Assembly (NCBI GenBank): GCA_904420585.1
Contig: CAJFVX010000021.1
Coordinates: 19,319-83,318 of the forward strand
Source of the DNA: Candidatus Howiella intestinavium
Lineage (GTDB): Bacteria > Bacillota > Clostridia > Oscillospirales > Acutalibacteraceae
Length of the DNA: 64,000 bases
Direction: 5' to 3'
Position 1 is the stretch's first letter. The number at the start of each line of letters is the position of its first letter. This document shows positions 12,548 to 46,830 of this stretch, in pieces. The notes beneath the pieces were generated by a model. That model searched no databases and was not told the origin of the DNA. It saw only the letters and a list, made by a program, of their open reading frames with translations. Position numbers and translations under genes: made by a program.

Positions 12548-12571
12548 CGCGACGGAACTGAATGAAAACAG

Positions 12572-12605: not shown

Positions 12606-12637
12606 GCTGTCGGCCGGGCGGAAGCCTGCCGGCTTTA

Positions 12638-14641: not shown

Positions 14642-14692
14642 AAAAACGCCCCCCTGCCGCCGGCTGCAGGCTGGTGGGCGGCAAAGGGGGCG
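14642..14692 (-). terminator. rho-independent terminator of queT
   Basis: On the minus strand cgccccctttgccgcc ... ggcggcaggggggcg is followed by TTTTT (plus-strand A-tract at 14642-14646). Confidence 0.75.
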
Positions 14693-14710
14693 CAGAAATA
14701 AGGCGAAAGC

Positions 14711-15262
14711 CTATCGCTTGGCCAGTTGGGGGCCGAATAAGAAGGCGGCCCGGCCGGATTTGTGGATGGCCAGCCACAAAAGGCTGCCCAGGACGATGCA
14801 TACCGTCACTTCGCCCAGGGCCACGCCGGCCGCCATGGTGACAAAGCCCCAGGCGGTAAAGCCCTCGGGCAGGGTCAGAATGGCCAGTTCGGCGCCCACG
14901 ATAATCGCGTTGCAGAGGATGGGGAAGAGGGGGGCCAGCACCGGGAAGCCCTTGACGGTCACCCGGGCGGTCAGCCGCACCAGGATGGCGGCCAGCAGGG
15001 TGGCCAGGGTGCCGCATATCCAGTCCACCGGGCCTAAAGAGCTGCCCAGGTTGCCCAGGAAGCACCCCACCGTCAGGCCGGGGATGGCCGCCGGCGTAAA
15101 GACCGGCAGGATGGTCAGGGCCTCCGAGATGCGGAACTGGACGCTGCCGTAGGCCAGAGGCGCGCCGGCGTAGGTCAGGGCCACGTAGAGGGCGGCGATG
15201 ACGGCCGCCCGGACTACAAACAGGACAGGCTTTTCCTTGGGTTTGCGTATTGCTTGCTGCAT
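14711..15262 (-). CDS. queT: queuosine-precursor transporter QueT family protein
   Basis: 183-aa polytopic protein. QueT-typical N-terminus (AALYVALTY...VQFRISEALTILPVF). A preQ1-I aptamer sits directly upstream. Confidence 0.85.
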   Translation of the reverse strand: MQQAIRKPKEKPVLFVVRAAVIAALYVALTYAGAPLAYGSVQFRISEALTILPVFTPAAIPGLTVGCFLGNLGSSLGPVDWICGTLATLLAAILVRLTARVTVKGFPVLAPLFPILCNAIIVGAELAILTLPEGFTAWGFVTMAAGVALGEVTVCIVLGSLLWLAIHKSGRAAFLFGPQLAKR

Positions 15263-15270
15263 GTTACATT

Positions 15271-15311
15271 CCTCCGTAGTTTTGTTTTAGGTCAGGATGT
15301 TGCGACTGACC
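15271..15311 (-). promoter_or_regulatory. preQ1-I riboswitch
   Basis: Minus-strand RNA is GGUCAG-UCGCAACAUC-CUGACC-UAAAACAAAACUACGGAGG. It has a 6-bp P1, a 10-nt loop starting UCGCA, and an A-rich tail with ACAAAAC..CUA running into the SD GGAGG 8 nt before the queT ATG. It closely parallels the T. tengcongensis and B. subtilis preQ1-I aptamers. Confidence 0.8.
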
Positions 15312-15319
15312 GCTTATGT

Positions 15320-15350
15320 AAAATGAAAGCCGCCTGCCTGCGGGCGGCTT
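15320..15350 (-). terminator. rho-independent terminator of the CNNM gene
   Basis: Minus strand aagccgcc-N8-ggcggctt followed by tcatttt, 18 nt after stop 15368. Confidence 0.7.
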
Positions 15351-15367
15351 CCATGGGTTGGAATGTT

Positions 15368-16792: not shown

Positions 16793-17303
16793 GGATACAT
16801 AACTCCTCTCAAAATTGTCTGTGGACTGCCTTCCCCTTCCCGCGGGAAACCCCGCCGAAAGGCGAAAATCAGATACATATCATAATAGCGGTTTTAGCGG
16901 CGTTTGTCAAAGGGCCGTCCGGCTTCTGCGGCGGTCTGCGGAGGCGTGCAAGGGCAGCGGCCGCGCCGCTTGCGGGTTTTTCCGCCCGCATTAGGGAAAT
17001 GGGGGCAAAATCGGGTAATTCCGGGACAAAATTTTAAACTGGTGGATATGGACATAAAAATAAGGACGAAAAAACCGCATTTTTTCGGTTTTTGCACTTT
17101 ACTTATCTGCGCAAAGGTGCTACTATAAATTGCGAGTTGAAATCAGTTGCGGCGGCCTTTCCATCGCGCCGATTTCACGGGGCTTTTCCGGCCGGTCCGG
17201 ACAAGCCTGCCCGCGCCGCCCGGGAGAGGCGGCGGCCCGTCTTCTATTATAATGTAAGGGGCGGGCGCAGGATTTGTCTATCATCAAAAGGAGGCAATCT
17301 TTC

Positions 17304-20300
17304 ATGGCAAGAAAATGGAAAACCATGGACGGCAACTCGGCCGCGGCGCATGTATCCTACGCCTTTACCGACGTTGCCGCAATCTACCCCATCACCCCCT
17401 CGTCCAACATGGCCGAGGAGACCGACAAGATGGCTACCGCCGGCGTGAAGAATATCTTCGGCCAGACGGTGAAGGTCACCGAGATGCAGTCTGAGGCCGG
17501 CGCTGCCGGCGCTGTCCACGGCTCCCTGGCCGCCGGCGCCCTTACCACCACCTACACTGCCTCCCAGGGCCTGCTGCTCATGATCCCCAACATGTACAAG
17601 ATCGCCGGTGAGCTGCTGCCGGGCGTTATCAACGTCTCGGCCCGCGCCATCGCCGCCCACGCCCTGTCCATCTTCGGCGACCACTCCGATATCTACGCCT
17701 GCCGCCAGACCGGCTTCGCCATGCTCTGCTCCAACGACCCCCAGGAGGTCATGGATCTGGGCGCTGTGGCCCATCTGTCGGCCATCAAGGGCCGGGTTCC
17801 TTTTGTGCACTTCTTCGACGGCTTCCGCACCTCCCATGAAATCCAGAAGATCCAGATGTGGGACTACAAGGATCTGGAGGAGATGCTGGATAAGGACGCC
17901 GTCAACGCCTTCCGCCGCCGCTCCTTAAACCCCGAGCATCCCGAGCAGCGCGGTACCGCCCAGAACCCCGACGTCTTCTTCCAGGCCCGCGAGGCTGCCA
18001 ACAACTACTACACCGCCATTGTGGACGTTGTGGAAGATTACATGAACCAGGTCAATAAGAAGCTGGGCACCAAGTACAAGCTCTTCAACTACTACGGCGC
18101 CCGGGATGCCGAGCATGTCATCGTGGCCATGGGCTCGGCCTGCGACACCATCGAGGAGACCGTGGACTACCTGAACGCCCAGGGCGAGAAGGTGGGCCTG
18201 GTGAAGGTGCATCTCTACCGTCCCTTCTCGGCCAAGCACCTGATTGCCGCCATCCCCTCCACCGTCAAGAAGATTTCCGTGCTGGATCGCACCAAGGAGC
18301 CCGGCTCCATCGGCGAGCCCCTGTACCTGGACGTTGTGGCTGCCCTGAAGGATTCCAAGTTTGCCGACGTGCCGGTATACGGCGGCCGCTACGGCCTGGG
18401 CTCCAAGGACACCACCCCCGCCGACTTCATCGCGGTTTACCGCAACATGGAGAAGGCCCGCTCCAAGAAGCGCTTCACCCTGGCCATCGAGGACGACGTG
18501 ACCGGCCTGTCCCTGAAGGTCAAGGAGAATCCCGACACCACCCCCAAGGGCACCACTTCCTGTAAGTTCTGGGGCCTGGGTTCGGACGGCACCGTGGGCG
18601 CCAACAAGAACTCCATCAAGATCATCGGCGACAACACCGATATGTACGCCCAGGGCTACTTCGACTATGACTCCAAGAAGTCGGGCGGCGTAACCGTTTC
18701 CCACCTGCGCTTCGGCAAGAAGAAGATCAAGTCCACCTACCTCATCAACAAGGCCGACTTTGTGGCCTGTCATAACCCCTCCTATGTGGACAAGTATGAC
18801 ATTGTAGAGGACATCAAGCCCGGCGGCATCTTCCTGCTCAACTGCTCCTGGGACGACGCCGAGCTGGATACCCACCTGCCCGCCAAGATGAAGCGGTATA
18901 TCGCCAAGAACGACATCAAGTTCTACACCATCGACGCCACCCACATCGCCAAGGAACTGGGTCTGGGCGGCCGCGTCAACACCATCCTGCAGGCTGCCTT
19001 CTTCAAGCTCTCCAAGATCATCCCCGCCGACAAGGCCGTGGTGCTCATGAAGGAAGCCGCCACCAAGTCCTACGGCAAGAAGGGCGAGAAGGTCGTGGCC
19101 ATGAACCACGCCGCTATCGACCGGGGCGTGGCCGGCGCCAAGAAGGTCAAGGTGCCCGCCGCCTGGGCCAAGGCTGAGGATACCGACAATGCCGCCGGCG
19201 TGCTCACCGAGGGCCGTCCCGAAATCAAGGATTATATCGATAGCATCCTGACCCCTGTCAATGCCCAGCGGGGCAACAAGCTGCCCGTATCCGCCTTCCT
19301 GGATTACGTGGACGGCACTGTGCCCCTGGGTTCTTCGGCCTACGAGAAGCGGGGTATCGCCGTGGACGTTCCCACCTGGAACCCCGACAATTGTATCCAG
19401 TGTAACTTCTGCTCCTACGTCTGCCCCCACGCCGTCATCCGGCCGGTGGCCATGACCGACGAGGAAGTGCAGAACGCCCCCGAAGGCACCAAGTCCATGC
19501 CCATGACCGGCGTGCCCGGCCTGCATTTCGCCATGACCGTGTCCGTGCTGGACTGCACCGGCTGCGGTTCCTGCGCCAACGTATGCCCCGGCAAGAAGGG
19601 CGAGAAGGCCCTGACCATGCAGCCCCTGGATACCCAGCTGGACAAGGAAGCCGGCTTCGTCTACGGCCGCAAGCTGCCTGAGAAGCCCGAGGTGGCCGAG
19701 AAATTCAAGCCCACCACCGTCAAGGGCAGCCAGTTCAAGCAGCCTCTGCTGGAGTACTCCGGCGCCTGCGCCGGCTGCGGCGAGACCCCCTATGCCAAGC
19801 TGGTAACCCAGCTGTTCGGCGACCGGATGTACATCGCCAACGCCACCGGCTGTTCCTCCATCTGGGGCGGCTCCGCTCCCTCCACTCCCTACACCGTCAA
19901 CAAGGAAGGCCACGGCCCCGCCTGGCAGAACTCCCTGTTTGAGGACAACGCCGAGTTCGGCTACGGCATGCTGCTGGCCAACAAGGCCATCCGCGGCCGC
20001 CTGGCCGACGCCGCTGGGAAGCTGGTCGAGCTGACCGACGGCGACCTGAAGGCCGCTGCCGAGAAGTGGCTGGAGACCATGGAAGACGGCACTGCCAACA
20101 AGACGGCCGCCGCCGACTTCAAGGCCGCCCTGTCGGCCGCTAAGGTGTCCGGCGAGGCCGAGGCCCTGGTAAAAGAGCTGCTGGAAGACGCCGACTATTT
20201 GGCCAAGAAGTCCTTCTGGGCCTTCGGCGGCGACGGCTGGGCCTATGACATCGGCTTCGGCGGCCTGGATCATGCCATCGCCTCCGGTGAGGACATCAAC

Positions 20301-21575: not shown

Positions 21576-24500
21576 ATGAGAAAGAGCTTGAGGCGCGGAG
21601 CGTCCCTCTTGGTCTCCTTGTCGCTTTGTGTGTCGGCCTTTGCGGGCCTGACGGCACAGGGTTATGAGGCGACTATCAGCGGCTGGTCGGATGCAATCAG
21701 TTCCGATTATTATTGGCTGCAGAAAAACAACGTGACCGACGAGGATCAAGAGGTAACGCATGCTGCCGTAGCCGATGAACTGAAGTATCAGAATGAAACG
21801 CTGAATTTCAGAATTGGTACGACGAATGACGGAGCCACTTCCTTTACTTTGAACGATTCCTGGAGCAGCATGCTGCATGTTCAGTTTGAAAACTGGCTGG
21901 CTCCGGATGATACGTCGGTTACCGATAATGTAGGCAACCCCTGGGGCCAGACCAATGACCAGGGTCAGATCCGCAAATGGGGTGTTATCACAGTTCCCTT
22001 TATCGGCATGGCCTTTACCTGCAAAGGGCAGATGGCTGCTTCCGCCCCCGATCCGAGCAAGCCGATCCTGGGCAATGAATTTACGATTGATGGCGTTACC
22101 TACCAGCCCATGTGGGACAATGTGCGCATTCTGCAGAATGGCGCGGTAAGCACACAGCAGATGTTCCCCGGCATGAATGCGGAGGGAAATGACATTACCG
22201 CCAATACATTCCGCTATGCCATCGCTGCGTACAATCAGAACAATAAGCGCGCGGGCGCCGACGGCAAGGGCCTGCATGCCGGCTATCCTGTTGGCAACGC
22301 TGCATTGACCGACGATGCCTCTATGATTTATCAGGAACTGCTTGGCCCCGACGGCACGGCTTACCTGGTAGAGGGTGCGGATGTGGCGGAAAGCGGCGCC
22401 TTGACCGGCGCGCAGGTGATTCCCAGCGAGCTTGCCGGGGCCTTTGAGGGCCTGGGCGACAGCATGGATGCGCGGTTGGCTGTTACGGGTGTTCCCCTGG
22501 GCGCATATGCCGACGGTCGGATGGATTTTGCCAACGGCTATTTGACGGCCTCCGGCTTCCACAGCACCACCTGCAGCATCGTAAGCTTCTCCTTTGGTTC
22601 GGCTGAGGCGGCCCCCAGTGTGATTGATGAGGCGAATCACACGGTTACCGCTTATGTGAAGGATGGCACCAACCTTTCTTCTCTGACCCCCGAGGTGGAG
22701 ATCATCGGCAAAAGCTATACTCCCTCCGGTGCCCAGAACTTCAGTTCTCCCGTCACCTATACGGTTACGGCGGCTGCGGGCAATACGCAGGATTATACCG
22801 TGACGGTTATTACCCTGAATGAGGCTACCATTTCCACTTTTGCCATCGGCGATGCGACGGCTACCATTGATCAGGCCAACCGTGAGATCACCATTGCCGT
22901 CCATTCGGATGCCGACCTTTCCAACGTGACGCCCGAAGTGACCTTTGTGGGCAGCGGCGCCAGCATGTCCCCGGCCTCCGGCCTGAACCTGGAGGATTCC
23001 TGGGACAATCCGGTAGAGGTTACCGTCACCGCCGGCTCGGCTACCGCGACCTATACCATCCGGGCGCGTTACCTGAATACGGATAACAGCATCACTTCCT
23101 TTGTTGTTTCGGCCGATCAGTTCAAGTATGCTTGGGGCGACGTGGTTGCAACGATTGACAATGATGCCAAGACCATTAACATGGAATATGCCTGGGGTAA
23201 CTTTACAGGCGATGAGAACAACCCCACTCCCTATGCGCGGGTTTCCGCAGAGGTCACCCTGCCCTCCGGCGCCACCATTTCCCCGGATCCTGCCATTGCG
23301 CGGGATCAGCTGGGCCAGGAATATGTTGTTACCTCCGAGAACGGCGATGAAGCTGTCTATACGGTGCATATCACCCTGGACGACAACAAAATCTTCCCGC
23401 CGGTAGACGACCTTGACCTGTATGCGCAGGATAACTGGGGCCGTTTCAGCGGGGATGCTGAGGCTGCTGAGTTTGAAGCGATTCTGGAAGAGTACAATTA
23501 CCAGCGGTCTCAGGGATTTGACCCCGGCACGCCCAGCGGCGGCGTAAGCAACTGGGACGATTTGCTTTCCCGTCAGCTGTTTGTCAACGGAAGCGGAAAA
23601 AATGATATAATCAATGGCGCTACGGCCATGATCGCGGCCGATGTCAGCTATGGTAAAGCGAATACTTTGAAAAATACGATGGTTCGCGCTTGGCAGATCG
23701 ATGACGTAGTCGATGAAGACGGCATTAAGCACCGCGGCTGGTCTTGGGCCGGCAGCCCGGTGGAGAATGAATTCGTAATGGATAAACTCCATTATCAGCA
23801 GTTCTCCATGAGTTATGGTACCTATGACGACAACGGTAATATTCAGCGCGTGCTGAACGGTGTGGGCAATAGCTATAATGCCGTATCCAACGTTCTGAAG
23901 GAAGAGAATTCTCCTTTCTTTGATTTTGATAATGTGCAGGTCAAGGAGGGAGTACGCAATACCATCCGTGATGCGTACGAGGGCGCCAACAAGTCCGGCA
24001 TTAACCCCGGTATCGCTTTGGACGGCGCGATGAAGTATGATGCGGAGAACAAAATTCTCTACCAGGTCTTCAGCGGAACCGGCGAATACCATTCTACCGT
24101 GCGCGATCGCAACAATAAGACCATCATCATTAAGGGCCTTACTCCCGCTGAGAATGAGGAAGGCGAGATCGAGATGACCTCCAATGGTTCGGCCATCGCC
24201 ATGCTGCCCCGTATTCAGCATGTCTATGAGAATATCGATCTCAGCGGCTCGGAAGCTTATGCCGGTCAGGAGAACGAATACGTTTCGCTGAACCTGGATG
24301 GCTTCGAAGTAAAATACAGCAAGACGCTGGGCATGCCCAACAGCGCGCCGGAAATTCAGGATGACAGCGAAACCGGAAATGGCACCGTGATTATGGACTT
24401 TGCCAAGGGCTGGGTCGAGTGCAAGGCGGATTCGGATGAGGTTATCTGGCACGATGGCAGCCGGCTGAACAATGAAAATCGGATTGAGTCGGTTGAAGCC

Positions 24501-25130
24501 AGCGGCAACGTGGCGGTTGAGAAGGTTGTTGTCAATTCTCTGGATTCGGAGAATCCCAACGAGGAAACCGATTGGCTGGGCAACTCCATCAACATTTACT
24601 TTGCTGAGGGCGAAACGGTTGATTTGACTAATGTCACCATCAACAATATCGTGACTGTGGATCCCAATGCCACCGTGGAGTATAACGGCGAGGCTTTTGT
24701 GCCCGGCACTGCCGTGAACCTGACCTACAGCGCTTTGCTCCAGGTAAATGCTGAGAACGGCGCCAACCGCAGGTACAGCGTTTACGCCTGGCAGGGCGAC
24801 GAGGCGCTGTCTGCTGATGCGCCGGACGATCCCAATCAGGAAATTGTAAATCCGCCCACCGATGACGATCCAAGCGATCCCTCGCAGCCCGGCAACAACA
24901 ATTCCCAGCAGCCTAATGGAAGCAACGGCGGCGGCAATTCGGATGAGGATCCCTATGAGTACGGCTATTATGATGCCAATGGCAAGTGGGTGCCTGTAAC
25001 CAAGGGGTTCTATGAGCAGTGGCTCAGGAGCGGCGGAAACGCTGCCACTGGCGAGGCCGGCGTGGTTGGCGTGGTCCTGCTGACCGCTGCGGCTGCAGGC
25101 GCACTGGTTGTACTGCGCAAGAAGAAATAG
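21576..25130 (+). CDS. 1184-aa cell-surface protein with Ig-like repeats and a C-terminal sorting-signal-like anchor
   Basis: RBS GGAGGAA and a signal peptide (LLVSLSLCVSAFAGLTA). At least three ~85-aa beta-sandwich repeats end in YTVTV, YTIRA or YTVHI. Pro/Asp/Asn linker. C-terminus NAATG + 21 hydrophobic residues + RKKK. Confidence 0.85.
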   Translation: MRKSLRRGASLLVSLSLCVSAFAGLTAQGYEATISGWSDAISSDYYWLQKNNVTDEDQEVTHAAVADELKYQNETLNFRIGTTNDGATSFTLNDSWSSMLHVQFENWLAPDDTSVTDNVGNPWGQTNDQGQIRKWGVITVPFIGMAFTCKGQMAASAPDPSKPILGNEFTIDGVTYQPMWDNVRILQNGAVSTQQMFPGMNAEGNDITANTFRYAIAAYNQNNKRAGADGKGLHAGYPVGNAALTDDASMIYQELLGPDGTAYLVEGADVAESGALTGAQVIPSELAGAFEGLGDSMDARLAVTGVPLGAYADGRMDFANGYLTASGFHSTTCSIVSFSFGSAEAAPSVIDEANHTVTAYVKDGTNLSSLTPEVEIIGKSYTPSGAQNFSSPVTYTVTAAAGNTQDYTVTVITLNEATISTFAIGDATATIDQANREITIAVHSDADLSNVTPEVTFVGSGASMSPASGLNLEDSWDNPVEVTVTAGSATATYTIRARYLNTDNSITSFVVSADQFKYAWGDVVATIDNDAKTINMEYAWGNFTGDENNPTPYARVSAEVTLPSGATISPDPAIARDQLGQEYVVTSENGDEAVYTVHITLDDNKIFPPVDDLDLYAQDNWGRFSGDAEAAEFEAILEEYNYQRSQGFDPGTPSGGVSNWDDLLSRQLFVNGSGKNDIINGATAMIAADVSYGKANTLKNTMVRAWQIDDVVDEDGIKHRGWSWAGSPVENEFVMDKLHYQQFSMSYGTYDDNGNIQRVLNGVGNSYNAVSNVLKEENSPFFDFDNVQVKEGVRNTIRDAYEGANKSGINPGIALDGAMKYDAENKILYQVFSGTGEYHSTVRDRNNKTIIIKGLTPAENEEGEIEMTSNGSAIAMLPRIQHVYENIDLSGSEAYAGQENEYVSLNLDGFEVKYSKTLGMPNSAPEIQDDSETGNGTVIMDFAKGWVECKADSDEVIWHDGSRLNNENRIESVEASGNVAVEKVVVNSLDSENPNEETDWLGNSINIYFAEGETVDLTNVTINNIVTVDPNATVEYNGEAFVPGTAVNLTYSALLQVNAENGANRRYSVYAWQGDEALSADAPDDPNQEIVNPPTDDDPSDPSQPGNNNSQQPNGSNGGGNSDEDPYEYGYYDANGKWVPVTKGFYEQWLRSGGNAATGEAGVVGVVLLTAAAAGALVVLRKKK

Positions 25131-32177: not shown

Positions 32178-33563
32178 ATGTTATGCGTGAACAAGAAAAG
32201 AATCATCAGCGCCCTGCTGTGCGCCGCTATGATTGTCAGCGCGGGAGTTATGGCTTCTTCCTGCGGCGACAACGACGGCACCCCCAGTGGCAGCACTGAC
32301 AGTTCCGACGAATGGGTTCTTGCTGACAAGAACGTCACTATGTGGGGAGGCTTCGGCGAGGACTACTACGAGAATTTCAAGCGGGATAATCCGGATATCA
32401 ATCTGAATTATGCCACCTCCTCTGACAACAGCCTGGTGACCCTGGCTGCGGCAATCCAGTCGGGCAACCAGCCGGATATGTTCTACACCAACAATGCCGC
32501 CAATGCGCCTCTGGGCGATGCGGTGGGCCGTGACCTGCTGCTGCCCCTGGAAGGCTATTTTGACCGGGATCCCAACTATAAGTGGGAGGATCTGCCCGAA
32601 TGGTATGATATGTTTGTCAAGTATACGGGCAACGATGGGCAGGATCATATTTACGCCGTCTACACCGACGTGTCGGTAGCCTGCTTGGTCTGGAACAAGG
32701 ATATGTTTGAAGCCAATGGCCTGGATCCCGATAAGCCGCCGACAACCTGGTCTGAAATGCAGACCATGGCTTCTCAGCTGAACAAAACCGACTCCAACGG
32801 CATGCTGAGCCAGGCCGGTTTCACCTCCTATAACTGGTGGTTCCAGCATTGGCGCCTGACCTATGGCACGACCTATCAGGATCCCCTGACTGGCGAGCCC
32901 AACATCAATACCCCCGAGATGCAGAATGTCATGAACTTCTTAAAGTCCTTCCCCGAATCCTTCGGCGGCGCCGACCGGCTGCCCGAGACGGTGAACTGGG
33001 GCGCAGGCAACGTGGGTATGGCTATTGCCGATACGGGTTATTCCCAGAACATGGTTAATGACTTTGAGACCGGTATCGCCATTATGCCCAAGCCTGACGA
33101 TAAGGAAGGCGACCAGGTGGTTGCCGGTTATGCCTGGCAGTGGTACGGCGTACCCAAGGGCTGTAAGAACCCCGACGGCGGCTGGACGGTAGCCCGCTGG
33201 GCTGTGACCGGCGGCTGCGCCGGCGTACAGGCCCGTGCCGCTCTGGAGAATCCCGAGACCTGGGTGCCTGTCTATCAGGTACACAAGCCCTCCAAGCAGG
33301 AACTGTTCGATCGGTATCTGGAAGGCTGCCGGGAGGATATCCAGGAAATCCTGATGAAGCGCGAGGAGATCTTTGATCAGATTTCCATTGCCCGCCCGGT
33401 TAATGCGCCTATCAATGCCAACTGGGAAAGCGCTCTGGAAACCAAGTGCGTTGAGATCATCAACGGCGAAACGACTGTTACCGATGGTTTGGATTATATT
33501 CAGAAAGTTGGTATGCAGTTGTACGAGGATTATCGTTCGGATGTACTGGGCATAACCGAATAA
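32178..33563 (+). CDS. ABC sugar transporter substrate-binding lipoprotein (family 1)
   Basis: Signal with Cys (VMASSCGDN). SBP_bac_1-type features are PDMFY, MPKPD, and a mid-protein YAWQWYGVPKGCKNPDGGW segment. Confidence 0.85.
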   Translation: MLCVNKKRIISALLCAAMIVSAGVMASSCGDNDGTPSGSTDSSDEWVLADKNVTMWGGFGEDYYENFKRDNPDINLNYATSSDNSLVTLAAAIQSGNQPDMFYTNNAANAPLGDAVGRDLLLPLEGYFDRDPNYKWEDLPEWYDMFVKYTGNDGQDHIYAVYTDVSVACLVWNKDMFEANGLDPDKPPTTWSEMQTMASQLNKTDSNGMLSQAGFTSYNWWFQHWRLTYGTTYQDPLTGEPNINTPEMQNVMNFLKSFPESFGGADRLPETVNWGAGNVGMAIADTGYSQNMVNDFETGIAIMPKPDDKEGDQVVAGYAWQWYGVPKGCKNPDGGWTVARWAVTGGCAGVQARAALENPETWVPVYQVHKPSKQELFDRYLEGCREDIQEILMKREEIFDQISIARPVNAPINANWESALETKCVEIINGETTVTDGLDYIQKVGMQLYEDYRSDVLGITE

Positions 33564-34918: not shown

Positions 34919-34975
34919 ACCCTTCTTGACGAGCCGTATATTTATGCGGTATACTTTATAAAAGGTTATTTTTGC

Positions 34976-38271: not shown

Positions 38272-39246
38272 GTGATTAGTAGCGCTAACACCAAGGTCAC
38301 CGGCGCAGGAGCGGCAGCGGTCGAGAAAAAGGCACCCAAGCCCAAGCGGAAGAATAAGCTGCTCAGCGGTTATGCCCGGGACAAAATTTCCGGCTACCTG
38401 ATGGCCGCCCCCTTTATCATCCTCTTTATCATCTTCATTGTTGTGCCGGTTATATGGAGTTTGGTCATCAGCCTGACCCATTACAACATCGTGCAGCCCA
38501 TGACCTGGGCGGGACTGGACAACTACAGGGACCTGTTTACCAACGACGACCTGTTCATTACCGCATGTAAAAATACCTTTACATATGCGATTATCGTGGG
38601 CCCTGTGGGATTCCTGATGTCCTTTATCTTCGCCTGGCTTATCAACCAGCTGAAGTTCCGCAACGCTTTCGCCATGGCCTTCTACGCCCCCTCCCTGACG
38701 GGCGCCACCGCCATGTCGGTTATCTGGCTGGTGCTTTTCTCCAGCGACCGGTACGGCTACATCAACGATAAGCTGATCAGCCTGGGGCTCATCAGTGAGC
38801 CGATTTTGTGGAATACCGACCCCACTTACATCATGCCGGTTATCATTATCGTAGCCCTTTGGAGCAGCTTGGGCCAGGGCTTCTTAACCAACCTGGCCGG
38901 TTTGAACAATATCCCGGTAGACCGCTATGAGGCGGCGCAGATCGACGGCATCCGGAACAAGTTCCAGGAACTCATCTACATCACCCTGCCTTCGGTCAAG
39001 CCGCAGCTGCTGTTCAACGCCGTTATGGGCATTGTGGGTGCGCTGGGCGTATTCGACCTGGCCACCGGTATCGCCGGCTTCCCCAGCCCCGACTATGCGG
39101 CCCACACCATCGTGGCCCATATGTACGACTACGCCTTCCTGCGTTTTGAGCTGGGCTACGCGTCTGCTATCGCGTTTATCCTGTTTGTACTGAACTTTGG
39201 GCTTGGCAGAATATTTATGAAAATATTCTCCTCGAAAGGCGAATAG
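38272..39246 (+). CDS. ABC sugar permease, MalF/UgpA-type (pair 1)
   Basis: 6 TM. EAA loop RYEAAQIDGIRNKFQELIYITLPSVKP. Confidence 0.92.
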   Translation: MISSANTKVTGAGAAAVEKKAPKPKRKNKLLSGYARDKISGYLMAAPFIILFIIFIVVPVIWSLVISLTHYNIVQPMTWAGLDNYRDLFTNDDLFITACKNTFTYAIIVGPVGFLMSFIFAWLINQLKFRNAFAMAFYAPSLTGATAMSVIWLVLFSSDRYGYINDKLISLGLISEPILWNTDPTYIMPVIIIVALWSSLGQGFLTNLAGLNNIPVDRYEAAQIDGIRNKFQELIYITLPSVKPQLLFNAVMGIVGALGVFDLATGIAGFPSPDYAAHTIVAHMYDYAFLRFELGYASAIAFILFVLNFGLGRIFMKIFSSKGE

Positions 39247-39257: not shown

Positions 39258-40148
39258 ATGCAGGCAGTCAACGTAAAGAAAATCAAAGTCAGAAAGTTCA
39301 GCTGGAAAAAGATCACCTTCGGCCGCGTGCTTTTCTACCTCATCATGATCGCCCTGGCCCTCTTCTTTCTCCTCCCGCTGATTTACATGGTGTGTACGGC
39401 CTTCAAGCCGCTGGATGAGTTGTTCCTCTTCCCGCCCACCTTCTTTGTGCGCCATCCAACCATGCAGAACTTCACCGACCTGGTGGCCACGCTGGACAGC
39501 AGCACCGTGCCCTTCACCCGGTACATTTTCAACAGCGTACTGGTGACGGTGGCTTCGGTTGTGGGCACGGTTATCGTCTGTTCCATGGGCGCCTTTGTGG
39601 CGGAGAAGCTGAGCCTGCGGGGCATGAAGCTCTTTGGCCAGATCGTCACCTACGCCCTGATGTTCTCGGTGCCGGCCGGCCAGATCCCCATCTACATCAT
39701 TATCAACAACATGGGCATGCTGGACACCTACTGGTCCCTCATCATTCCCAAGCTGGCTACTCCTATGTACTTCTTCCTCTATCAGCAGTTTGTTTCCCAG
39801 GTTCCCAACGAACTGCTGGAAAGCGCCAAGCTGGACGGCTGCGGCAACTTCCGGATCTTCATGAAGATTGTCCTTCCCATGACCAAGGCTGTTATCTCCA
39901 CCATCGTGGTTTTCGCCTTCGTGGCCAACTGGAACGACAGCTTCTCGGCCCTTATCTATATCAATAAGCAGGCCATGAAGACCGTCCCGCTGATTCTGAA
40001 TACCATCGGTTCCGGCGTAGGTACAGTGGCCCGGGCGGGCGCCCAGTCGGCGGCTGTATTCATCACGACCCTGCCGTCGATTCTGATTTCGGTCCTGATG
40101 GAGCGGAATATCTTAAAGGCCATGGCCTACTCCGGTATTAAGGGTTAA
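39258..40148 (+). CDS. ABC sugar permease, MalG/UgpE-type (pair 1)
   Basis: EAA loop LLESAKLDGCGNFRIFMKIVLPMTKA. 11-nt gap to the previous gene. Confidence 0.92.
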   Translation: MQAVNVKKIKVRKFSWKKITFGRVLFYLIMIALALFFLLPLIYMVCTAFKPLDELFLFPPTFFVRHPTMQNFTDLVATLDSSTVPFTRYIFNSVLVTVASVVGTVIVCSMGAFVAEKLSLRGMKLFGQIVTYALMFSVPAGQIPIYIIINNMGMLDTYWSLIIPKLATPMYFFLYQQFVSQVPNELLESAKLDGCGNFRIFMKIVLPMTKAVISTIVVFAFVANWNDSFSALIYINKQAMKTVPLILNTIGSGVGTVARAGAQSAAVFITTLPSILISVLMERNILKAMAYSGIKG

Positions 40149-40161
40149 GGGGGGGAAGACA

Positions 40162-42288
40162 ATGAATTGGAGTAAATTGAAACAAATCAGCCTCATATTT
40201 CTTGTCTTCATCCTCATGGCCGGCATGTTCGGCATGCAGGCCAGCGCCTACGATGAGCAGAACTATGTGCTGGACGCCGACGGCTACCAGCTGCCTATTC
40301 CGGTAACCTACAACGCCGAATCGGTCACCCGCTACCTCAGCGACGAGGCCGGGCAGCTCAGCAGCCCTACGGATATCTTTATCACCAAATCCGACCGGAT
40401 GTATATTGTGGACGGCGGCAACAACCGCATCGTCAGCATGAACTGCGACGGCACGGATGTGAAGACCTTCAGCAATTTCAGCGGCGAAACCCTTTCCAAT
40501 CCCAACGGCATCTATGTCTATGAGGATTCGGGGGACATGCTGATTGCCGATACCGACAACGGCCGCCTGCTGCTGACGGATAAGGACGGCAACCTGAAAA
40601 AGATTTACACCCAGCCGGAATCCGAGCTGTACGATAAGACCTATCCCTTCAAGCCCCTGAAGGTGGCGGTCAACCTTATCGGTCAGATCTATGTCATCAA
40701 CACCGATGACTACCACGGTTTTGTGGTGCTGGACGAGGCGGGCGAACTGCGGGGCTATATGGCGCCGACCAAGGTCCCCTTTGACCTGGTGTACAGGCTG
40801 GCCTCCATCTTCGCCACCGAGGAGCAGCTGTCCCGTATGGAGCAGCCCATGCCCCCGGTGCACACCAACCTGTTTATCGATGACGACAACTATATTTACA
40901 CCACCACCGGCCGGGGTGCGGACGAGGGGCAGCTGATGGTATTCTCCCCCGTGGGCAAGAATATCTATCCCTTTACCGGCGCCTTCGGCGAGGAGCGTAC
41001 CGACTACGTCCTGCGGCATTATAACGTCAATGCCGACTCCACCGAGCAGAACTTTGTGGACGTGGTTGTGGACGACGGCGGCATCGTGAGCATTCTGGAT
41101 TCGGTCACCGGCCGTATCTACCAGTATGACAGCGAGGGCAACAACCTGACCGTCTTCGGCGGCGTGGGCGTCTGGGAAGGCCGCTTCCAGGGCGCCTCGG
41201 GCATGGCCATGGACAGCCAAGGCAATATCTACGTTGTGGACCAGACCCAGTCCTCTCTGCATAAGTTTGTCCCCACCCAGTTCACCAATCTCATACATAC
41301 TGCCCTGGGCCTGTATTACGACGGCAAGTATGATGAGGCTGTGGAATACTGGGATCAGGTTTTGGAACTGAATCCCAACTACCCCATGGCCCACGTGGGA
41401 CGGGGCAATGCCTATCTGCGGAACGACCAGTACGAAGAGGCCATCGAAGAGTTCCGTCTGGCCGACAACAAGGCGGGCTATTCGGATGCCTTTGATGAAA
41501 ACGAACTGCAGTTTGTCCGGCAGAACTTTGCCTTTGTCCTCCTGGCCATCATTGCCATTGTAGTTCTTGTGGTGCTGCTGATTATGTACCTGCACAAGCG
41601 GTATAAGCAGACCTATGAGAAACAAAGCCGCATCAAGTGGTTCAACAACCGAGGGCGGCTGCAGATTCTGCTGGGATGTATTTTCGATCCCAACGAGGGC
41701 TTCCGCAACATTCGGCGGCACCGGCAGGATTACGATATTGTCATCCCGCTGATCATCTATGCGCTGATTTTTGTGGCCAAGTGCTTCTCCTTGTTTGTAA
41801 CCCATTACCCCTTCCAGGCCACCGACATCGCCCGGGTGAACTTGGCGCAGGAGACCCTTATGATATTCCTGCCGCTGCTGACCTGGGTTGTGGGCAACTA
41901 TCTGGTCACTACCATCCGCAGCGGTGAGGTAAAGATGCGGGAGGTTTTTAGTGCCTCGGCCTATTCCATGCTGCCCTATGTCATCATTACCATCCCGCTG
42001 GCCTGCGTATCCAACGTCATGTCCCTGAGCAGTTCGGGCATTTACAACGGCATTACCGTGATCATGTGGGTCTGGATTGGCATCCTCTTCTTTGCCAGCA
42101 CCATGTCCATGAACTCGTACCGGTTCTTTGAGACGGTGGGAATTATCATCATCGCCCTGTTTGCCTGTGTGTTCATGTGGGTCGTCTTCGCCATGATCTT
42201 CATGCTGGGCAATGAGGTGGTTTCCTTCTTCACCGGCATCTTTGAGAACTGGCAGGTATATTTCAGCATGCAGGGAGGTAACGTGTAA
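40162..42288 (+). CDS. NHL-repeat beta-propeller / TPR / Yip1-domain membrane protein (708 aa)
   Basis: Signal peptide. NHL-like repeats (PTDIFITKSDRMYIVDGGNNRIV, PNGIYVYEDSGDMLIADTDNGRLL, GMAMDSQGNIYVVDQTQSSLHKF). TPR (YYDGKYDEAVEYWDQVLELNPNYPMAHVGRGNAYL). A TM segment is followed by a multi-TM Yip1-like C-terminal domain. Confidence 0.8.
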   Translation: MNWSKLKQISLIFLVFILMAGMFGMQASAYDEQNYVLDADGYQLPIPVTYNAESVTRYLSDEAGQLSSPTDIFITKSDRMYIVDGGNNRIVSMNCDGTDVKTFSNFSGETLSNPNGIYVYEDSGDMLIADTDNGRLLLTDKDGNLKKIYTQPESELYDKTYPFKPLKVAVNLIGQIYVINTDDYHGFVVLDEAGELRGYMAPTKVPFDLVYRLASIFATEEQLSRMEQPMPPVHTNLFIDDDNYIYTTTGRGADEGQLMVFSPVGKNIYPFTGAFGEERTDYVLRHYNVNADSTEQNFVDVVVDDGGIVSILDSVTGRIYQYDSEGNNLTVFGGVGVWEGRFQGASGMAMDSQGNIYVVDQTQSSLHKFVPTQFTNLIHTALGLYYDGKYDEAVEYWDQVLELNPNYPMAHVGRGNAYLRNDQYEEAIEEFRLADNKAGYSDAFDENELQFVRQNFAFVLLAIIAIVVLVVLLIMYLHKRYKQTYEKQSRIKWFNNRGRLQILLGCIFDPNEGFRNIRRHRQDYDIVIPLIIYALIFVAKCFSLFVTHYPFQATDIARVNLAQETLMIFLPLLTWVVGNYLVTTIRSGEVKMREVFSASAYSMLPYVIITIPLACVSNVMSLSSSGIYNGITVIMWVWIGILFFASTMSMNSYRFFETVGIIIIALFACVFMWVVFAMIFMLGNEVVSFFTGIFENWQVYFSMQGGNV

Positions 42289-44849
42289 TGAGGAAAAGAT
42301 TAGTTACCGGACTGCTGGCGGCGGCTTTATCGGTTAACCTTCTGGCGGCGACGGCTCTGGCCGAACCCGCCCCGGCCGACGCCGCCGGCGCTGCGGCTGT
42401 CACCGAGCCCACCACCACCCAGGTGTCCTCTGATTTTGAGCTCATGGCCTCCAACGACCAGGCCGAGCTCTATGCCAGCGAGGAACTGGGGGCCGTGGCT
42501 GTCAAGGATCTGCGCAGCGGCTTTATCTGGTATTCCAACGTCCCCAGTGATACCTATGACCGCACCGGCCTGCAGGCCGCTCAGAGCCATCAGCTGGATT
42601 CGCTGGTTGTCCTGACCTATACCGAGCTGAATAACAACGACGCTTCCACTACCACCACGCCCATCAATGATATGGAGCCCGAGATTTCCACCGAGAAAAT
42701 CGATAACGGCGTCCGTATCAACTATCGGGTGGACGATATCAACCTGGAGATGAGCGTAGAGGCGGTTCTGGACGGCGGCGCTTTGGTGCTGTCCGTCCCC
42801 AACGACCGCATCCTGGAGGGCGAAGGCACGGTTGACCGGATGAACAATTATATCGAGAATATCGAGGAGTTCATCAACTATGCCAACGAGGCCCTGGATG
42901 AGGTGGAAAGCTACGACGTCCGGGGCACGGGATCGGATATCCGGAAATCCCGTTCCCGGCTCAAGGAGCTGCAGGGCATCGTGGACGATCTGACCTCGGT
43001 GGTCGGCGTGGCCGCCGCCCAATCCCAGGCCAAGATCATCCTGGAGGATGAACTGAAAACCTTTATGTGCGGCGGTACCAGCACCGTGGGTATTTACGGC
43101 CGCGTACAGAATGCGGACGTCCCCTCCAGCGTAAAGAGCACCTGGAGCGGCATGCAGATGGAGATCGAAAACTGCAGCTATGATTTCGGCCTGCTGGCCT
43201 CCATCAAGTACGGCGGTATTGTCAGCCTGGAGCTGGCGCCCAACCTGGGTGCCGCGGCCGATACCGAAGAGGGATATGTTTTTTATCCCGACGGATCCGG
43301 CGCCCTGACCTACAATACGGCCAGCCACGGATCCATGGCCGAAGTATACGAAGCCAGCCTGTACAGCGATCAGGATGTGGATATGTCCTGGGAAAACAAC
43401 CGGGATTCCACCGGGCTCAAGCGGGCGATGCTGCCGGTTTTCGGCGTCAAGAAGAACAGCCACGCCTACGTGGCCATTGTGGAGGACGGGGACACCGACG
43501 CTAGCCTGCGGTTTGTTCCCAGCGGCAACAATGTCAACCTGAACCGGGTAAGCGCTTCTTTTGTTTACCGCAATGAGGTGCAGGTCACCTCTTCCAGCCA
43601 GTACGCCACCGGCGTGGCCACCATCTACAACAAGGAACGAATGGAGACCCAGCCCAAAGTCCGCTATGTTTTCCTGGACGGGGAGAATGCCGACTACAGC
43701 GGCATGGCCAATACCTATCGGGACTACCTGCTGGAAAAGGGCCAGCTGGAAAAGAGCGACCTGGTCACCGATGAGCTGCCTTTGGCCATCGATATTTATG
43801 GTTACACCCTCAAGTCAATGCTTTTCTTCAAGCAGGTCATGCCCCTTTCCACCTTTGAGGAAATGAACCAGATTGTCAACGAGTTGAACGACGCGGGGAT
43901 TACCAACACCTTCCTGCATATTCAGCAGTGGGATCGCAACGAGGATCCCAACGGCTTCAAGGTGCCCGGCAAACTGGGCGGGGCCGACGGGCTCCGGCAG
44001 CTGGTGGAGAATACCCGCAATATCGGCGGCCATGTTTTCCTGCAGACCGATATGGTGGACGCCGATACGGATGAGCACAGCATCAGCAATTCCCGTCTGG
44101 CCTACGACAACAACCTGAAGATTTACGAGTACCAGACCATGTGGCTGAAGCTGTTCTCGCCCGTATATGTGCAGAGCCAGATGGCCTCTTATCTGAAGGA
44201 TGTGGACAGCCTGGGCAATCCCGGCGTGGGCCAGTACCGGATGGGCTCCATGATCTACAATGACTACAATACCCGCAACGCCGCCACCCGCGACGATACC
44301 GCCCAGATCTGGAACGATATCTATCGCACCACGCAGGAGCAGACCGAGACGACCTCCTACTCCGGCAACGCCTATCTGCTGAATGGGACCGACTGGCTGC
44401 AGGATATCCCCATGAGCTCCACGGGCTATATCTTCTCGGATGAGTCCATCCCCTTCTACCAGATGGTGGTGCACGGCCTTATCCCCTACAGCGCCAAGCC
44501 CTTCAACCACTTCTACGACGCCGACCGGGAAAAGCTGCAGACCATTGAGTACGGCGCCATCCCGCTGTACAAAATCACCTACCGGGATTCCACCGACCTG
44601 CGCGAGCTGTTCTACGGCTTCACCACCCCCTATTCCTCGGTGAAGGACGGCATGATCGAGGTATACAACGAGATGAACAGCCGGCTGAGCCACCTTTATA
44701 CCCAGTATATCGTGGATCATCAGCGGGTGACCGACGATGTGGTGGTGGAAACCTTCAGCGGCGGGCAGAAGCTGTACATCAACTACTCGGAAGAAGACTA
44801 CACCCTGGACGGCGTAACCATTCCCGCCCTGGATTATGTGGTACAGTAA
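42288..44849 (+). CDS. 853-aa secreted protein of unknown function (possibly DUF5696-like, glycoside-hydrolase-like)
   Basis: TAATG overlap with the previous gene. Signal peptide LLAATALA/EP. Barrel-like segments are NTFLHIQQWDRNEDPNGFKVPGKLGG and IPFYQMVVHGLIPYSAKPFN. The family assignment comes from memory only. Confidence 0.7.
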   Translation: MRKRLVTGLLAAALSVNLLAATALAEPAPADAAGAAAVTEPTTTQVSSDFELMASNDQAELYASEELGAVAVKDLRSGFIWYSNVPSDTYDRTGLQAAQSHQLDSLVVLTYTELNNNDASTTTTPINDMEPEISTEKIDNGVRINYRVDDINLEMSVEAVLDGGALVLSVPNDRILEGEGTVDRMNNYIENIEEFINYANEALDEVESYDVRGTGSDIRKSRSRLKELQGIVDDLTSVVGVAAAQSQAKIILEDELKTFMCGGTSTVGIYGRVQNADVPSSVKSTWSGMQMEIENCSYDFGLLASIKYGGIVSLELAPNLGAAADTEEGYVFYPDGSGALTYNTASHGSMAEVYEASLYSDQDVDMSWENNRDSTGLKRAMLPVFGVKKNSHAYVAIVEDGDTDASLRFVPSGNNVNLNRVSASFVYRNEVQVTSSSQYATGVATIYNKERMETQPKVRYVFLDGENADYSGMANTYRDYLLEKGQLEKSDLVTDELPLAIDIYGYTLKSMLFFKQVMPLSTFEEMNQIVNELNDAGITNTFLHIQQWDRNEDPNGFKVPGKLGGADGLRQLVENTRNIGGHVFLQTDMVDADTDEHSISNSRLAYDNNLKIYEYQTMWLKLFSPVYVQSQMASYLKDVDSLGNPGVGQYRMGSMIYNDYNTRNAATRDDTAQIWNDIYRTTQEQTETTSYSGNAYLLNGTDWLQDIPMSSTGYIFSDESIPFYQMVVHGLIPYSAKPFNHFYDADREKLQTIEYGAIPLYKITYRDSTDLRELFYGFTTPYSSVKDGMIEVYNEMNSRLSHLYTQYIVDHQRVTDDVVVETFSGGQKLYINYSEEDYTLDGVTIPALDYVVQ

Positions 44850-44864: not shown

Positions 44865-45824
44865 ATGAATAATACAAGCGCACCGGTCAAAGCCGCCAAG
44901 CCTCCCAAGGCGAGGAAGCCCCGCAAGTCGCGGCTCCGCGCCCGGGAAAATCTGTGGGGGTATGTCTTTACCGCACCCTGGGTACTGGGCTTCTGCTTCT
45001 TCTTCGCCTATCCCATTGTCTATTCCTTGATTCTGGCCTTTGGCCGGATTACCGACCTGACCAACTTCTCTACCCAGTTCGTGGGCTTTGAGAACTTCAT
45101 CAACGCCTTTACCCGCGACGAGCAGTTCCTGCCGCTTTTGGGACAGTCCCTGGGCGATATGCTGATTAAAACCCCGGTGGTCGTGGTTTTCTCCCTGTTT
45201 ATCGCCATTCTGCTGAACCGGAACATCAAGGGGCGCGGCCTCTTCCGCGTCTTCTTCTTCCTGCCGGTTCTCCTGGGTACCGGTATCGTGCTGAGCACCA
45301 TCAACGGCAGCCTGGGCAACGATTCGGCCCAGCTGGCCCAGGAGGCGGCCCAGCAGGCCGCTACCGGCACGGATATGCAGGGCTATTCCTCCTCGGTTGG
45401 CCTGACGGTTATGCTGCTGGGGCCGGATCTGGCCCTGATACTGGAGGATATCCTGACCGTGGTTACCGACGTGCTTTGGATGTCGGGTATCCAGATCGTT
45501 ATCTTCCTGGGCGCCCTGCAGACCATCCCCTCCTCCTACTATGAGGCGGCCTACTGCGACGGCGCTTCCGAATGGGAGAAGTTCTGGAAGATCACCCTGC
45601 CCCTGACCATGCCCAATATCCTGCTGAACACGGTTTATACCATGATTGACTACCTGAGCAGTACGGACAACGAGGTGGTCACCTACATCCGGGATACGGG
45701 CCTTACAGGCGGCAACGTGACCTTCGGCAGCGCCATGGGCTGGGTTTACTTCCTGACGTCCGGTATCATCATCCTGATTGTCTTCCTGATTCTGAAACGG
45801 TTTACGTTCTATGGAGATGAATAA
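44865..45824 (+). CDS. ABC sugar permease, MalF/UgpA-type (pair 2)
   Basis: RBS GAGGAGG. EAA loop YYEAAYCDGASEWEKFWKITLPLTMP. Confidence 0.92.
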   Translation: MNNTSAPVKAAKPPKARKPRKSRLRARENLWGYVFTAPWVLGFCFFFAYPIVYSLILAFGRITDLTNFSTQFVGFENFINAFTRDEQFLPLLGQSLGDMLIKTPVVVVFSLFIAILLNRNIKGRGLFRVFFFLPVLLGTGIVLSTINGSLGNDSAQLAQEAAQQAATGTDMQGYSSSVGLTVMLLGPDLALILEDILTVVTDVLWMSGIQIVIFLGALQTIPSSYYEAAYCDGASEWEKFWKITLPLTMPNILLNTVYTMIDYLSSTDNEVVTYIRDTGLTGGNVTFGSAMGWVYFLTSGIIILIVFLILKRFTFYGDE

Positions 45825-45863: not shown

Positions 45864-46778
45864 ATGACCGGAAAGCTTTCGCTGAAAACCCAGAGCCGTC
45901 TGGCGACTGCGAAAAAGTATTCGGGCAAGTTTATCATAAACCTGATTATTTACATCCTGCTGATTGAATTTGCCTTTACGTTCCTGTATCCCTTCATCTA
46001 TATGATCCTGAACTCCTTAAAGTACGACTACGAGGTCATCGACGCGACCAAGCAGTGGATCATTACGGATATCAACTGGAACAACTATGTAAGCGCCTTT
46101 GAGGGACTGGATTATATGAAGTCCCTGGTGAATACCCTGATTGTGGTGCTGGGCAGCACCCTGGGCCATATCATCTCCTGCTCCCTGGCTGGATACGGCT
46201 TCGCCCGGTTTAAGTTCAAGGGCAGCAGCCTGATGTTCGGTTTGGCCATGCTGAACCTGATTATCCCCTCGGCCCTGATGATTATGCCCCTGTACATTCA
46301 GTTCTCCAAGTTCCACATGATGGGCACCTACCTGCCGATTATCCTGCCCTCTTTCTTCGGCTTCGGGCTGAAGGGCGGCATCTACATCTTCCTGTTCCGG
46401 CAGTTCTTCAAATCCCTGCCGGTATCCTACGAGGAAGCCGCCAAAATCGAAGGCTGCTCCATGCTGCAGGTTTTTGTCCGCATTATGCTCCCCATCGCGC
46501 GGACGACCATCCTGGTGGTCTTTATCCTCTCGGTGGTGTGGCACTGGAACGACTACTTTGAACCGGCGACCTATCTGTCGGGCAACCTGCAGATTCTCAG
46601 CCAGAAGATATCGTCGGTGGCCAGCGCTTCAGCTACGGTAACGTCGGCTGTGGGCGCCAGCGTCAATATGACGGCTCTGGCGGCCTGCGTGCTGGTTATC
46701 CTGCCGCTGCTGATTGTCTACTTCATCTTCCAGAAGCAATTCATGGAAGGCGTGGAGTTCAGCGGCCTGGCCAACTAA
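45864..46778 (+). CDS. ABC sugar permease, MalG/UgpE-type (pair 2)
   Basis: RBS GAAGGAGG. EAA loop SYEEAAKIEGCSMLQVFVRIMLPIART. Confidence 0.92.
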   Translation: MTGKLSLKTQSRLATAKKYSGKFIINLIIYILLIEFAFTFLYPFIYMILNSLKYDYEVIDATKQWIITDINWNNYVSAFEGLDYMKSLVNTLIVVLGSTLGHIISCSLAGYGFARFKFKGSSLMFGLAMLNLIIPSALMIMPLYIQFSKFHMMGTYLPIILPSFFGFGLKGGIYIFLFRQFFKSLPVSYEEAAKIEGCSMLQVFVRIMLPIARTTILVVFILSVVWHWNDYFEPATYLSGNLQILSQKISSVASASATVTSAVGASVNMTALAACVLVILPLLIVYFIFQKQFMEGVEFSGLAN

Positions 46779-46791: not shown

Positions 46792-46830
46792 AAAAACTCC
46801 CGGATGGCTTTCGCCGTCCGGGAGTTTTTC
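46792..46830 (+). terminator. rho-independent terminator closing the seven-gene operon
   Basis: actcccgga-N12-tccgggagt followed by TTTTC, 14 nt after stop 46778. Confidence 0.8.

Follow-up and report, generated by a model that had tools for sequence, protein, structure and literature searches.

The 64,000-nucleotide (nt) stretch of DNA analysed here, referred to throughout as the window, comes from Candidatus Howiella intestinavium, a member of the Acutalibacteraceae in the phylum Bacillota (GenBank assembly GCA_904420585.1, contig CAJFVX010000021.1, positions 19,319 to 83,318 of the forward strand). The subject of this report is a gene within the window at 40162..42288 (+) whose 708-amino acid (aa) product, designated P0001, is a membrane protein that joins an NHL beta-propeller and tetratricopeptide repeat (TPR) motifs to a Yip1 domain. 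This gene stands fourth in a row of seven that share one orientation and encode, in order, a giant solute-binding protein (SBP), the ATP-binding cassette (ABC) permeases permA and permB, P0001, a DUF5696 protein, and the permeases permC and permD. Membership of P0001 in this seven-gene cassette is near certain. The cassette is a widespread ABC importer with obligate extra subunits, and P0001 is a regular member of a family that has been annotated but not characterised. We propose that P0001 could be a docking or assembly subunit of this twin ABC-importer cassette for glycan uptake, holding the DUF5696 protein and perhaps the giant SBP, and we consider the chances for and against this role to be about even.

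The gene, its operon and its transcription

Identification of the P0001 gene rests on the open reading frame (ORF) and its translation, Pfam matches, 232 homologues and metatranscriptome contigs. The ORF comprises 708 codons (40162-42288, +) and is separated from the permB stop codon by a spacer of 13 nt, with a G-rich Shine-Dalgarno sequence located 5-6 nt before the ATG. At the other end, the stop codon overlaps the ATG of the DUF5696 gene as GTGTAATG (TAATG), which confirms the translational coupling to the following 853-aa gene that was described in an earlier reading of the sequence (hereafter the original prediction). The same reading had placed the gene between ABC permease genes, and BPD_transp_1 domains are indeed encoded on both sides. 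Permeases A and B occupy 38272-39246 and 39258-40148 (+) and permeases C and D occupy 44865-45824 and 45864-46778 (+), the assignments being based on Pfam BPD_transp_1 matches and on orthology, by which the two pairs fall into separate orthologous groups. The giant SBP (P0003; 35140..38232, +) carries its SBP domain at residues 635-923 according to Pfam and, as judged from the N-termini of 17 orthologues, has no lipobox. The DUF5696 protein (P0002, 853 aa; 42288..44849, +) is secreted, and its gene was identified from a Pfam match of 481 bits, the TAATG overlap and an AlphaFold2 model.

The P0001 sequence is present in chicken-gut metagenomes. Metatranscriptome contigs from two chicken-gut or gut studies match the interior of the gene without mismatch at 40460-40822, 40920-41273, 41288-41499 and 41462-41617, and a further contig (39908-40191) spans the permB/P0001 junction. 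Because contigs lie inside the gene and one of them crosses the junction, these data suggest that the gene is transcribed in the gut and is co-transcribed with permB. One metatranscriptome contig (run X28) has an additional G at 40148/40149 in the 13-nt spacer between permB and P0001; strains probably differ in the G-run that belongs to the ribosome-binding site. Most of the P0001 gene is overlapped on the other strand by a 555-codon ORF (40138-41805, -), a shadow ORF of this GC-rich coding region.

A promoter-like site lies 5' of the giant SBP gene (34926..34955, +); it reads TTGACG-18-TATACT and agrees with the consensus at 10 of 12 positions, a consensus match being the whole of its basis. 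The operon is closed after permD by an intrinsic terminator (46793..46830, +) consisting of a stem of ~16 base pairs followed by a T-run (-33.1 kcal/mol, z = -5.9), and this is the only terminator in the cassette operon.

Domain architecture and predicted topology

The original prediction had described P0001 as a signal or transmembrane (TM) segment followed by NHL blades, a TPR pair, a TM segment and a C-terminal block with the layout of Yip1 proteins. This architecture is borne out by Pfam, by an AlphaFold2 model and by hydropathy, and the peptides that had been quoted from the protein (GNIYVVDQTQSSLHKF, DMLIADTDNGRLL and FAFVLLAIIAIVVLVVLLIMYL) are all found in its translation. The NHL profile (PF01436) scores 38.1 bits against a gathering cut-off of 20; TPR_2 scores 43.9 bits against 27, in two stretches within residues 380-438; TPR_16 scores 41.1 bits against 32.7; and Yip1 (PF04893) scores 39.0 bits against 28.6 over residues 505-673, a match that extends across profile positions 2-172 of 173. 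P0001 is thus an NHL, tandem-TPR and full-length Yip1 protein by scores that are all over the profile cut-offs, and the NHL and Yip1 homology on which the original prediction depended has been upheld. Searches of NCBIfam with P0001 gave just partial matches that fell far below threshold, such as those to ScyF/ScyE and TPR lipoproteins.

The AlphaFold2 model, which was built from 34 homologues, has a mean predicted local distance difference test score (pLDDT) of 85.4 and a predicted template modelling score (pTM) of 0.74. It consists of an N-terminal helix (residues 3-22), beta strands between residues 35 and 371, a set of helices that runs into the membrane, and a helical bundle at residues 492-707. 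The N-terminal 29 residues (40162..40248, +) form a signal peptide with a hydrophobic segment at 9-27 and the motif ASA/YDE, where cleavage would take place. An AXA-type motif occurs at this position in all 20 orthologues inspected, and the signal peptide is probably cleaved. Residues 30-372 (40249..41277, +) form a six-bladed NHL beta-propeller according to the model, Foldseek and conservation. In Foldseek searches of the PDB the propeller resembled the six-bladed NHL domains of TRIM71, Thin, TRIM2/3 and Brat and the designed protein Pizza6, with E values of ~1e-15 and target-normalised TM-scores of ~0.8. It bears a helical insert at residues ~209-225 (FATEEQ) that is specific to the family. 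P0001 therefore shares its six-bladed fold with TRIM71/LIN-41, Brat, TRIM2/3 and Thin, as well as with the sensor domain of PknD, which was the template of Pizza. The eukaryotic NHL domains are cytoplasmic modules that bind RNA or protein, whereas the propeller of P0001 is predicted to be extracytoplasmic, has the helical insert and is joined to TPR motifs and a Yip1 domain.

It is conceivable that the propeller is catalytic, acting as an SGL-, lactonase- or lyase-type domain on a glycan or on one of its modifications. A match to SGL of 24.3 bits, the partial ScyF/ScyE matches and the presence of virginiamycin B lyase among the distant Foldseek matches point in this direction, but SGL would need 26.3 bits to pass its gathering cut-off, the partial NCBIfam matches fall short of theirs by a wide margin, and the best structural matches are to non-enzymatic NHL domains. 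Nor do the invariant residues include a conserved His/Asp/Asn pattern of the kind expected for a metal site. With SGL below its cut-off, no catalytic pattern, and invariant residues that coincide with NHL/TPR consensus positions, an SGL-type catalytic propeller was rejected, and an enzymatic role for the propeller in general appears highly improbable.

The propeller is followed by two TPR motifs and a capping helix (residues 373-455; 41278..41526, +), recognised from the Pfam TPR_2 and TPR_16 matches and from the helices of the model. Five helices at residues 373-454 account for the two motifs and the cap, with the helix pairs at 373-433, and the last of them continues unbroken into a long helix at residues 456-486. 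This long helix is the TM helix (41527..41619, +; hydropathy 3.63). The remainder of the protein (residues 487-708; 41620..42285, +) consists of a basic linker in the cytoplasm followed by a Yip1 domain with five TM segments, as indicated by Pfam, the TM segments, positive-inside counts and conservation. In all, hydropathy analysis identifies seven hydrophobic segments, comprising one at the N-terminus, one TM segment, and five further TM segments between residues 526 and 679.

Lysine plus arginine counts in the loops are 12, 3 and 1 for those predicted to lie inside and 1, 0 and 0 for those predicted to lie outside. Because of this distribution, the propeller and TPR motifs are predicted to be extracellular, carried on the helix that enters the membrane, with the basic linker in the cytoplasm; the Yip1 part is predicted to be a five-helix polytopic membrane domain with a cytoplasmic N-terminal part. 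An external propeller was what the original prediction had assumed, and the predicted topology agrees with it. The 428-residue ectodomain is strongly acidic, with 67 Asp plus Glu against 29 Lys plus Arg. Mean top-residue frequencies in the P0001 family are 0.46 for the NHL part, 0.49 for the TPR motifs, 0.34 for the TM helix and 0.42 for the Yip1 domain, and the ectodomain is thus more conserved than the membrane part. W397 in the TPR region is invariant, and P510, G588 and P605 are conserved in the linker and Yip1 domain.

A conserved cassette and its variants

A homology search with P0001 recovered 232 relatives in three groups. The first consists of full-length proteins of ~700 aa from Bacillota which, where they are named in the source, are labelled 'YIP1 family protein', 'DUF1282 family protein' or 'tetratricopeptide repeat protein'. 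The second contains proteins with the NHL and TPR parts only (~480-510 aa), and the third is a single 799-aa protein with an ABC permease domain and the NHL part. When 1.84 billion cluster representatives were searched with a profile, ~135 of the 150 matches listed (a saturated list) were full-length and matched in a single stretch; these were 670-770 aa in length and scored >675 bits.

The association of P0001-like proteins with DUF5696 was surveyed in a sample of 401 Bacillota genomes, in which a strong P0001-family match was defined as one with an E value below 1e-100. Strong matches occurred in 31 genomes, and DUF5696 occurred in 32 (~8%), namely those 31 and one more. Among the 49 DUF5696 loci listed, 36 were located directly downstream of a listed NHL/Yip1 match, and 11 others initially appeared to be unpaired. 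The latter were rejected as exceptions, since the first scoring took two to three candidates per genome and the DNA shows an NHL-TPR-Yip1 frame of 714-823 codons (measured stop to stop) immediately upstream of each. Overall, an NHL-TPR-Yip1 gene is found directly upstream in 47 of the 49 DUF5696 loci; in the one genome without a strong match this position is taken by a variant propeller-Yip1 gene, and the remaining locus is at the start of its contig. The pairing is therefore obligate in this sample.

In 20 of 22 loci examined as 20-kb regions, the genes follow the order giant SBP-permA-permB-[NHL-TPR-Yip1]-DUF5696-permC-permD, either directly or after circular permutation; L039 and L054 depart from it. 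The original prediction had presented P0001 as a fusion embedded between permease genes, a view that has to be revised: the protein belongs to the regular set of a widespread, conserved cassette, and Yip1 is encoded by its own gene in many relatives. Seven genomes (G054, G044, G088, G136, G172, G236 and G386) have at least three complete propeller-Yip1/DUF5696 pairs each, and G054 has at least four, a pattern that resembles the paralogous expansion of polysaccharide utilization loci. A cassette is also present in a metagenome-assembled genome (MAG) from the Chloroflexota (L055, GCA_036260315.1), where NHL and Yip1 are split into two genes and are accompanied by a giant SBP, two permeases and DUF5696; a single permease gene follows DUF5696 and is itself followed by unrelated Pup-ligase genes. 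No published description of the cassette was found in the literature searched, and likewise none of DUF5696.

Glycan-degrading enzymes are encoded next to the cassettes. Upstream of the cassette in the window are an ordinary SBP, four genes for glycoside hydrolase (GH) family 76 and one for GH125, which together make up an alpha-1,6-mannan set. The ordinary SBP (461 aa; 32178..33563, +) was identified by its Pfam SBP_bac_1 match, is separated from the cassette by one GH76 gene, and is probably the cassette's second binding protein. An ordinary SBP of this type (SBP_bac_1, ~450 aa) flanks the cassette in seven of ten cases tested, and 16 SBP_bac_1 proteins were counted in the flanks of 21 loci. 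The carbohydrate-active enzymes (CAZymes) found beside cassettes elsewhere are GH26, GH10, GH3, GH38, GH43 and apiosidase-like proteins. Further upstream in the window, before the mannan genes, an 1184-aa protein (21576-25130) has DUF5018 and DUF4971 domains, which we take to be typical of surface glycan-binding proteins of the Bacteroidota.

Given this genetic context, the NHL propeller might itself bind a poly- or oligosaccharide, alone or together with the TPR motifs, and pass it on to the binding proteins and DUF5696, in the way that SusE/F or SusD do in the Bacteroidota. Its predicted extracytoplasmic location, its occurrence in an operon with GH76/GH125 glycan-utilisation genes and the general use of propellers as ligand-binding platforms are in keeping with such a receptor. 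A site that recognises one particular glycan would be expected to change from glycan to glycan, however, and the ectodomain is the most conserved part of P0001 across differing CAZyme contexts, with conserved residues that fall mostly at structural NHL/TPR consensus positions. We consider a glycan receptor unlikely. Because the ectodomain is best conserved although the flanking CAZymes differ, a conserved protein partner is favoured over a glycan ligand.

The two halves of P0001 are not always joined. In 7 of 22 loci the NHL-TPR-TM part (~490-510 aa) and Yip1 (~205-230 aa) are encoded by neighbouring separate genes. Mapped on an NHL-TPR tree, the fused and split states require five changes, at least two of which are forced by well-supported branches. 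From this repeated fission and fusion, the propeller and Yip1 halves are taken to function together whether they are joined or not. A different fusion is found at locus L002 (1507-3948), where an 813-aa protein (799 aa as called) consists of permB, an extra TM segment and the NHL-TPR-TM part, with Yip1 encoded by the next gene. After the permease, the fusion has a basic stretch and a hydrophobic segment (residues 330-348) that ends in an AXA motif, an arrangement that would keep the propeller outside. The L002 protein might be cut by signal peptidase. Its permease-attached extracytoplasmic domain recalls the P2 loop of MalF, which docks the binding protein.

The propeller can also be of another type. 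At locus L054 (G350:C60:202700-222699, 7635-18682), DUF5696 is preceded by the gene for a 635-aa protein in which Yip1 is fused to a different propeller, also six-bladed, that matches the DUF5128 profile. DUF5696 is followed at this locus by genes for an HlyD-type membrane-fusion protein, a MacB_PCD/FtsX permease, a permC/D pair, GH16 and a LuxR regulator, and the locus is without the giant SBP and permA/B. L054 links the propeller-Yip1 pair to a YknXZ-like exporter module. In a further variant (L056, 9001-16767), the Yip1 protein is 820 aa long with an ectodomain that is barely recognised as NHL by Pfam, and an unassigned N-terminal region of ~650 residues brings the permC homologue to 918 aa.

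Evolutionary distance matrices were compared for 16 cassettes (the window, L001, L002 and L038-L053). The matrices for NHL, DUF5696, the giant-SBP core, Yip1, permC and permD correlate with r values of 0.66-0.87. Those for NHL, DUF5696 and the giant SBP reach 0.84-0.87 (partial r 0.75-0.81), and the top correlation is that of NHL with DUF5696 (0.87; partial r 0.81 when permease distances are controlled for). Distances for permA and permB correlate with each other at r 0.90 and with those for the other six cassette proteins at 0.12-0.44; this permease pair may be far more tightly constrained, or may have been exchanged on its own. The co-variation of the outer components is consistent with co-evolution and is not specific to contact.

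Partner proteins and the proposed docking role

P0002 appears from its model to have a GH129-like fold. The AlphaFold2 model (pLDDT 87.9, pTM 0.85) matches ZgGH129 (PDB 5opq) in Foldseek with an E value of 2.6e-30 and a target TM-score of 0.71, and then NagBb (PDB 5wzn) followed by GH101, GH36 and GH31 enzymes. The DUF5696 family profile matches NagBb by sequence as well (E 8.6e-11); a single-sequence search of the PDB with DUF5696 gave nothing meaningful, in contrast to the profile and fold searches. The overall fold is that of the GH129/GH101 enzymes, from which P0002 differs in having ~12% sequence identity to GH129 and an extra helical insert at residues 181-305 (42828-43202). This insert of ~125 residues forms four long helices within the N-terminal beta domain; DUF5696 members of ~710-790 aa are without it, and the Pfam match starts after it. 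The candidate acidic residues of DUF5696 are D659 (in the motif YxDYN; conserved in 26 of 30 sequences), D718 (25 of 30) and E754 (30 of 30).

P0002 has a cleavable-type signal peptide and no anchor. The original prediction had called the giant binding protein anchorless, and all 17 orthologues do lack a proper lipobox, which is unusual for a binding protein of a Gram-positive bacterium. The need for a tether is argued from these two observations, the 17 lipobox-less giant SBPs and the anchorless P0002.

The translocators themselves resemble CUT1 importers that share an MsmX/MsmK ATPase (MalEFG-MsmX), which likewise have BPD_transp_1 pairs and an SBP_bac_1 protein with the ATPase encoded elsewhere. 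No ATPase gene was found within the operon, and the genome has one ORF for a MalK/MsmX-type ATPase, on another contig; the genome is a MAG of 2.43 Mb with a completeness of 83%. A canonical CUT1 system has one SBP and one permease pair, whereas the cassette has two pairs together with the giant SBP, the propeller-Yip1 protein and the GH129-like protein.

The closest parallel for the Yip1 part is YknW, an accessory subunit of the Bacillus subtilis ABC transporter YknXYZ, and hence the fourth component of YknWXYZ, that is reported to form an interface with the transporter and to modulate its assembly (PMC4887032, PMC4338810). The statement in the original prediction that bacterial Yip1 proteins are essentially uncharacterised has to be qualified, YknW being a characterised ABC-transporter subunit (PMC4887032, PMC4338810). 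Like YknW of B. subtilis and B. amyloliquefaciens, P0001 is a polytopic Yip1-domain protein encoded in the same operon as membrane components of an ABC transporter, here permB and permC on its flanks, a likeness drawn from family and description. The two differ in that YknW is small and has no ectodomain, whereas the Yip1 domain of P0001 carries a propeller-TPR ectodomain of ~430 residues. They also differ in their partners. YknW acts with a MacB-type exporter that has a membrane-fusion protein and is involved in toxin resistance, whereas P0001 is associated with type-I CUT1 sugar importers and a GH129-like protein; P0001 has no MacB or membrane-fusion-protein partner, and L054 is the only locus with such neighbours. 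Because of this difference in partners, P0001 may be said to work like YknW rather than to be a YknW.

The YknW precedent could also be read in another way, in which the propeller senses substrate or the occupancy of a partner and the TM helix and Yip1 domain relay this information to regulate or couple the two translocators. YknW modulates the assembly and oligomeric state of its transporter (PMC4887032, PMC4338810). In the P0001 model, a rigid continuous helix leads from the TPR motifs into the membrane, and the protein has a conserved cytoplasmic loop (TTIxxGE, with G588 invariant) and a conserved P510 in the basic linker stretch. Sensing may likewise be the task of the NHL domain in PknD, where the propeller is coupled to a kinase. 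P0001 has no cytoplasmic output domain recognisable by Pfam. Since the cassettes usually have separate LacI or AraC/histidine-kinase regulators in addition, a sensor or gate appears quite unlikely.

In the docking role that we propose for P0001, the Yip1 bundle would pack against the TM domains of the permeases in the manner of YknW and YknXYZ. A docking role would fall to the propeller and TPR motifs, which would provide a docking platform at the translocators for the secreted DUF5696 protein and possibly for the anchorless giant SBP. Capture, trimming and import of oligosaccharides, which in this organism would derive from yeast-type alpha-mannan, could then proceed in one complex, with energy presumably supplied by the shared MsmX-type ATPase encoded elsewhere. 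The scaffold or tether envisaged in the original prediction fits the adjacency to DUF5696, the fusion to permB, the splitting of Yip1 and the lipobox-less SBPs, and tethering itself is a putative mechanism.

Several observations weigh against a docking role. Many DUF5696 orthologues are themselves equipped with a TM anchor at the N-terminus, and a lipobox occurs in one, so that tethering cannot be the sole role of P0001. The permB-NHL fusion is a single case, and a search among long family members revealed no natural fusion of NHL or Yip1 to DUF5696. The co-variation of distance matrices can come from shared history or from rates shared by extracellular proteins. Finally, the depth of the metatranscriptome data is low, and DNA carry-over is possible in the contigs.

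A more far-reaching version of the docking proposal is that the cassette encodes a hitherto unrecognised multi-subunit glycan-import machine of monoderms, a functional counterpart of the Sus system. P0001 would be the hub that bridges the two translocators and holds the GH129-like enzyme and the giant SBP, which bears a carbohydrate-binding module, so that the capture and cutting of long glycan chains would be coupled, in a single step, to import through two channels. We regard this version as tentative and rather doubtful. The comparison with the Sus systems of the Bacteroidota (SusCD, SusE/F/G) is one of functional analogy only, in that a transporter is genetically locked to surface glycan-binding and enzymatic parts and is reused beside varied CAZymes. 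There is no homology between the two, and the Sus transporters are TonB-dependent and located in the outer membrane, whereas those of the cassette are ABC importers of monoderms.

In the usual picture of glycan uptake in Gram-positive bacteria of gut and soil, a binding protein acts with two permeases and a shared ATPase. The cassette adds three obligate and uncharacterised parts to this picture, which are the propeller-TPR-Yip1 protein, the GH129-like protein and the giant binding protein, and it is found adjoining enzymes for mannans, xylan, pectic sugars and other glycans. Once worked out, the function of P0001 would be the first defined role of a prokaryotic Yip1 protein beyond that of YknW. 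It could also reveal a general strategy by which Gram-positive bacteria import complex carbohydrates, and it bears on the use of fibre and yeast mannan in animal guts.

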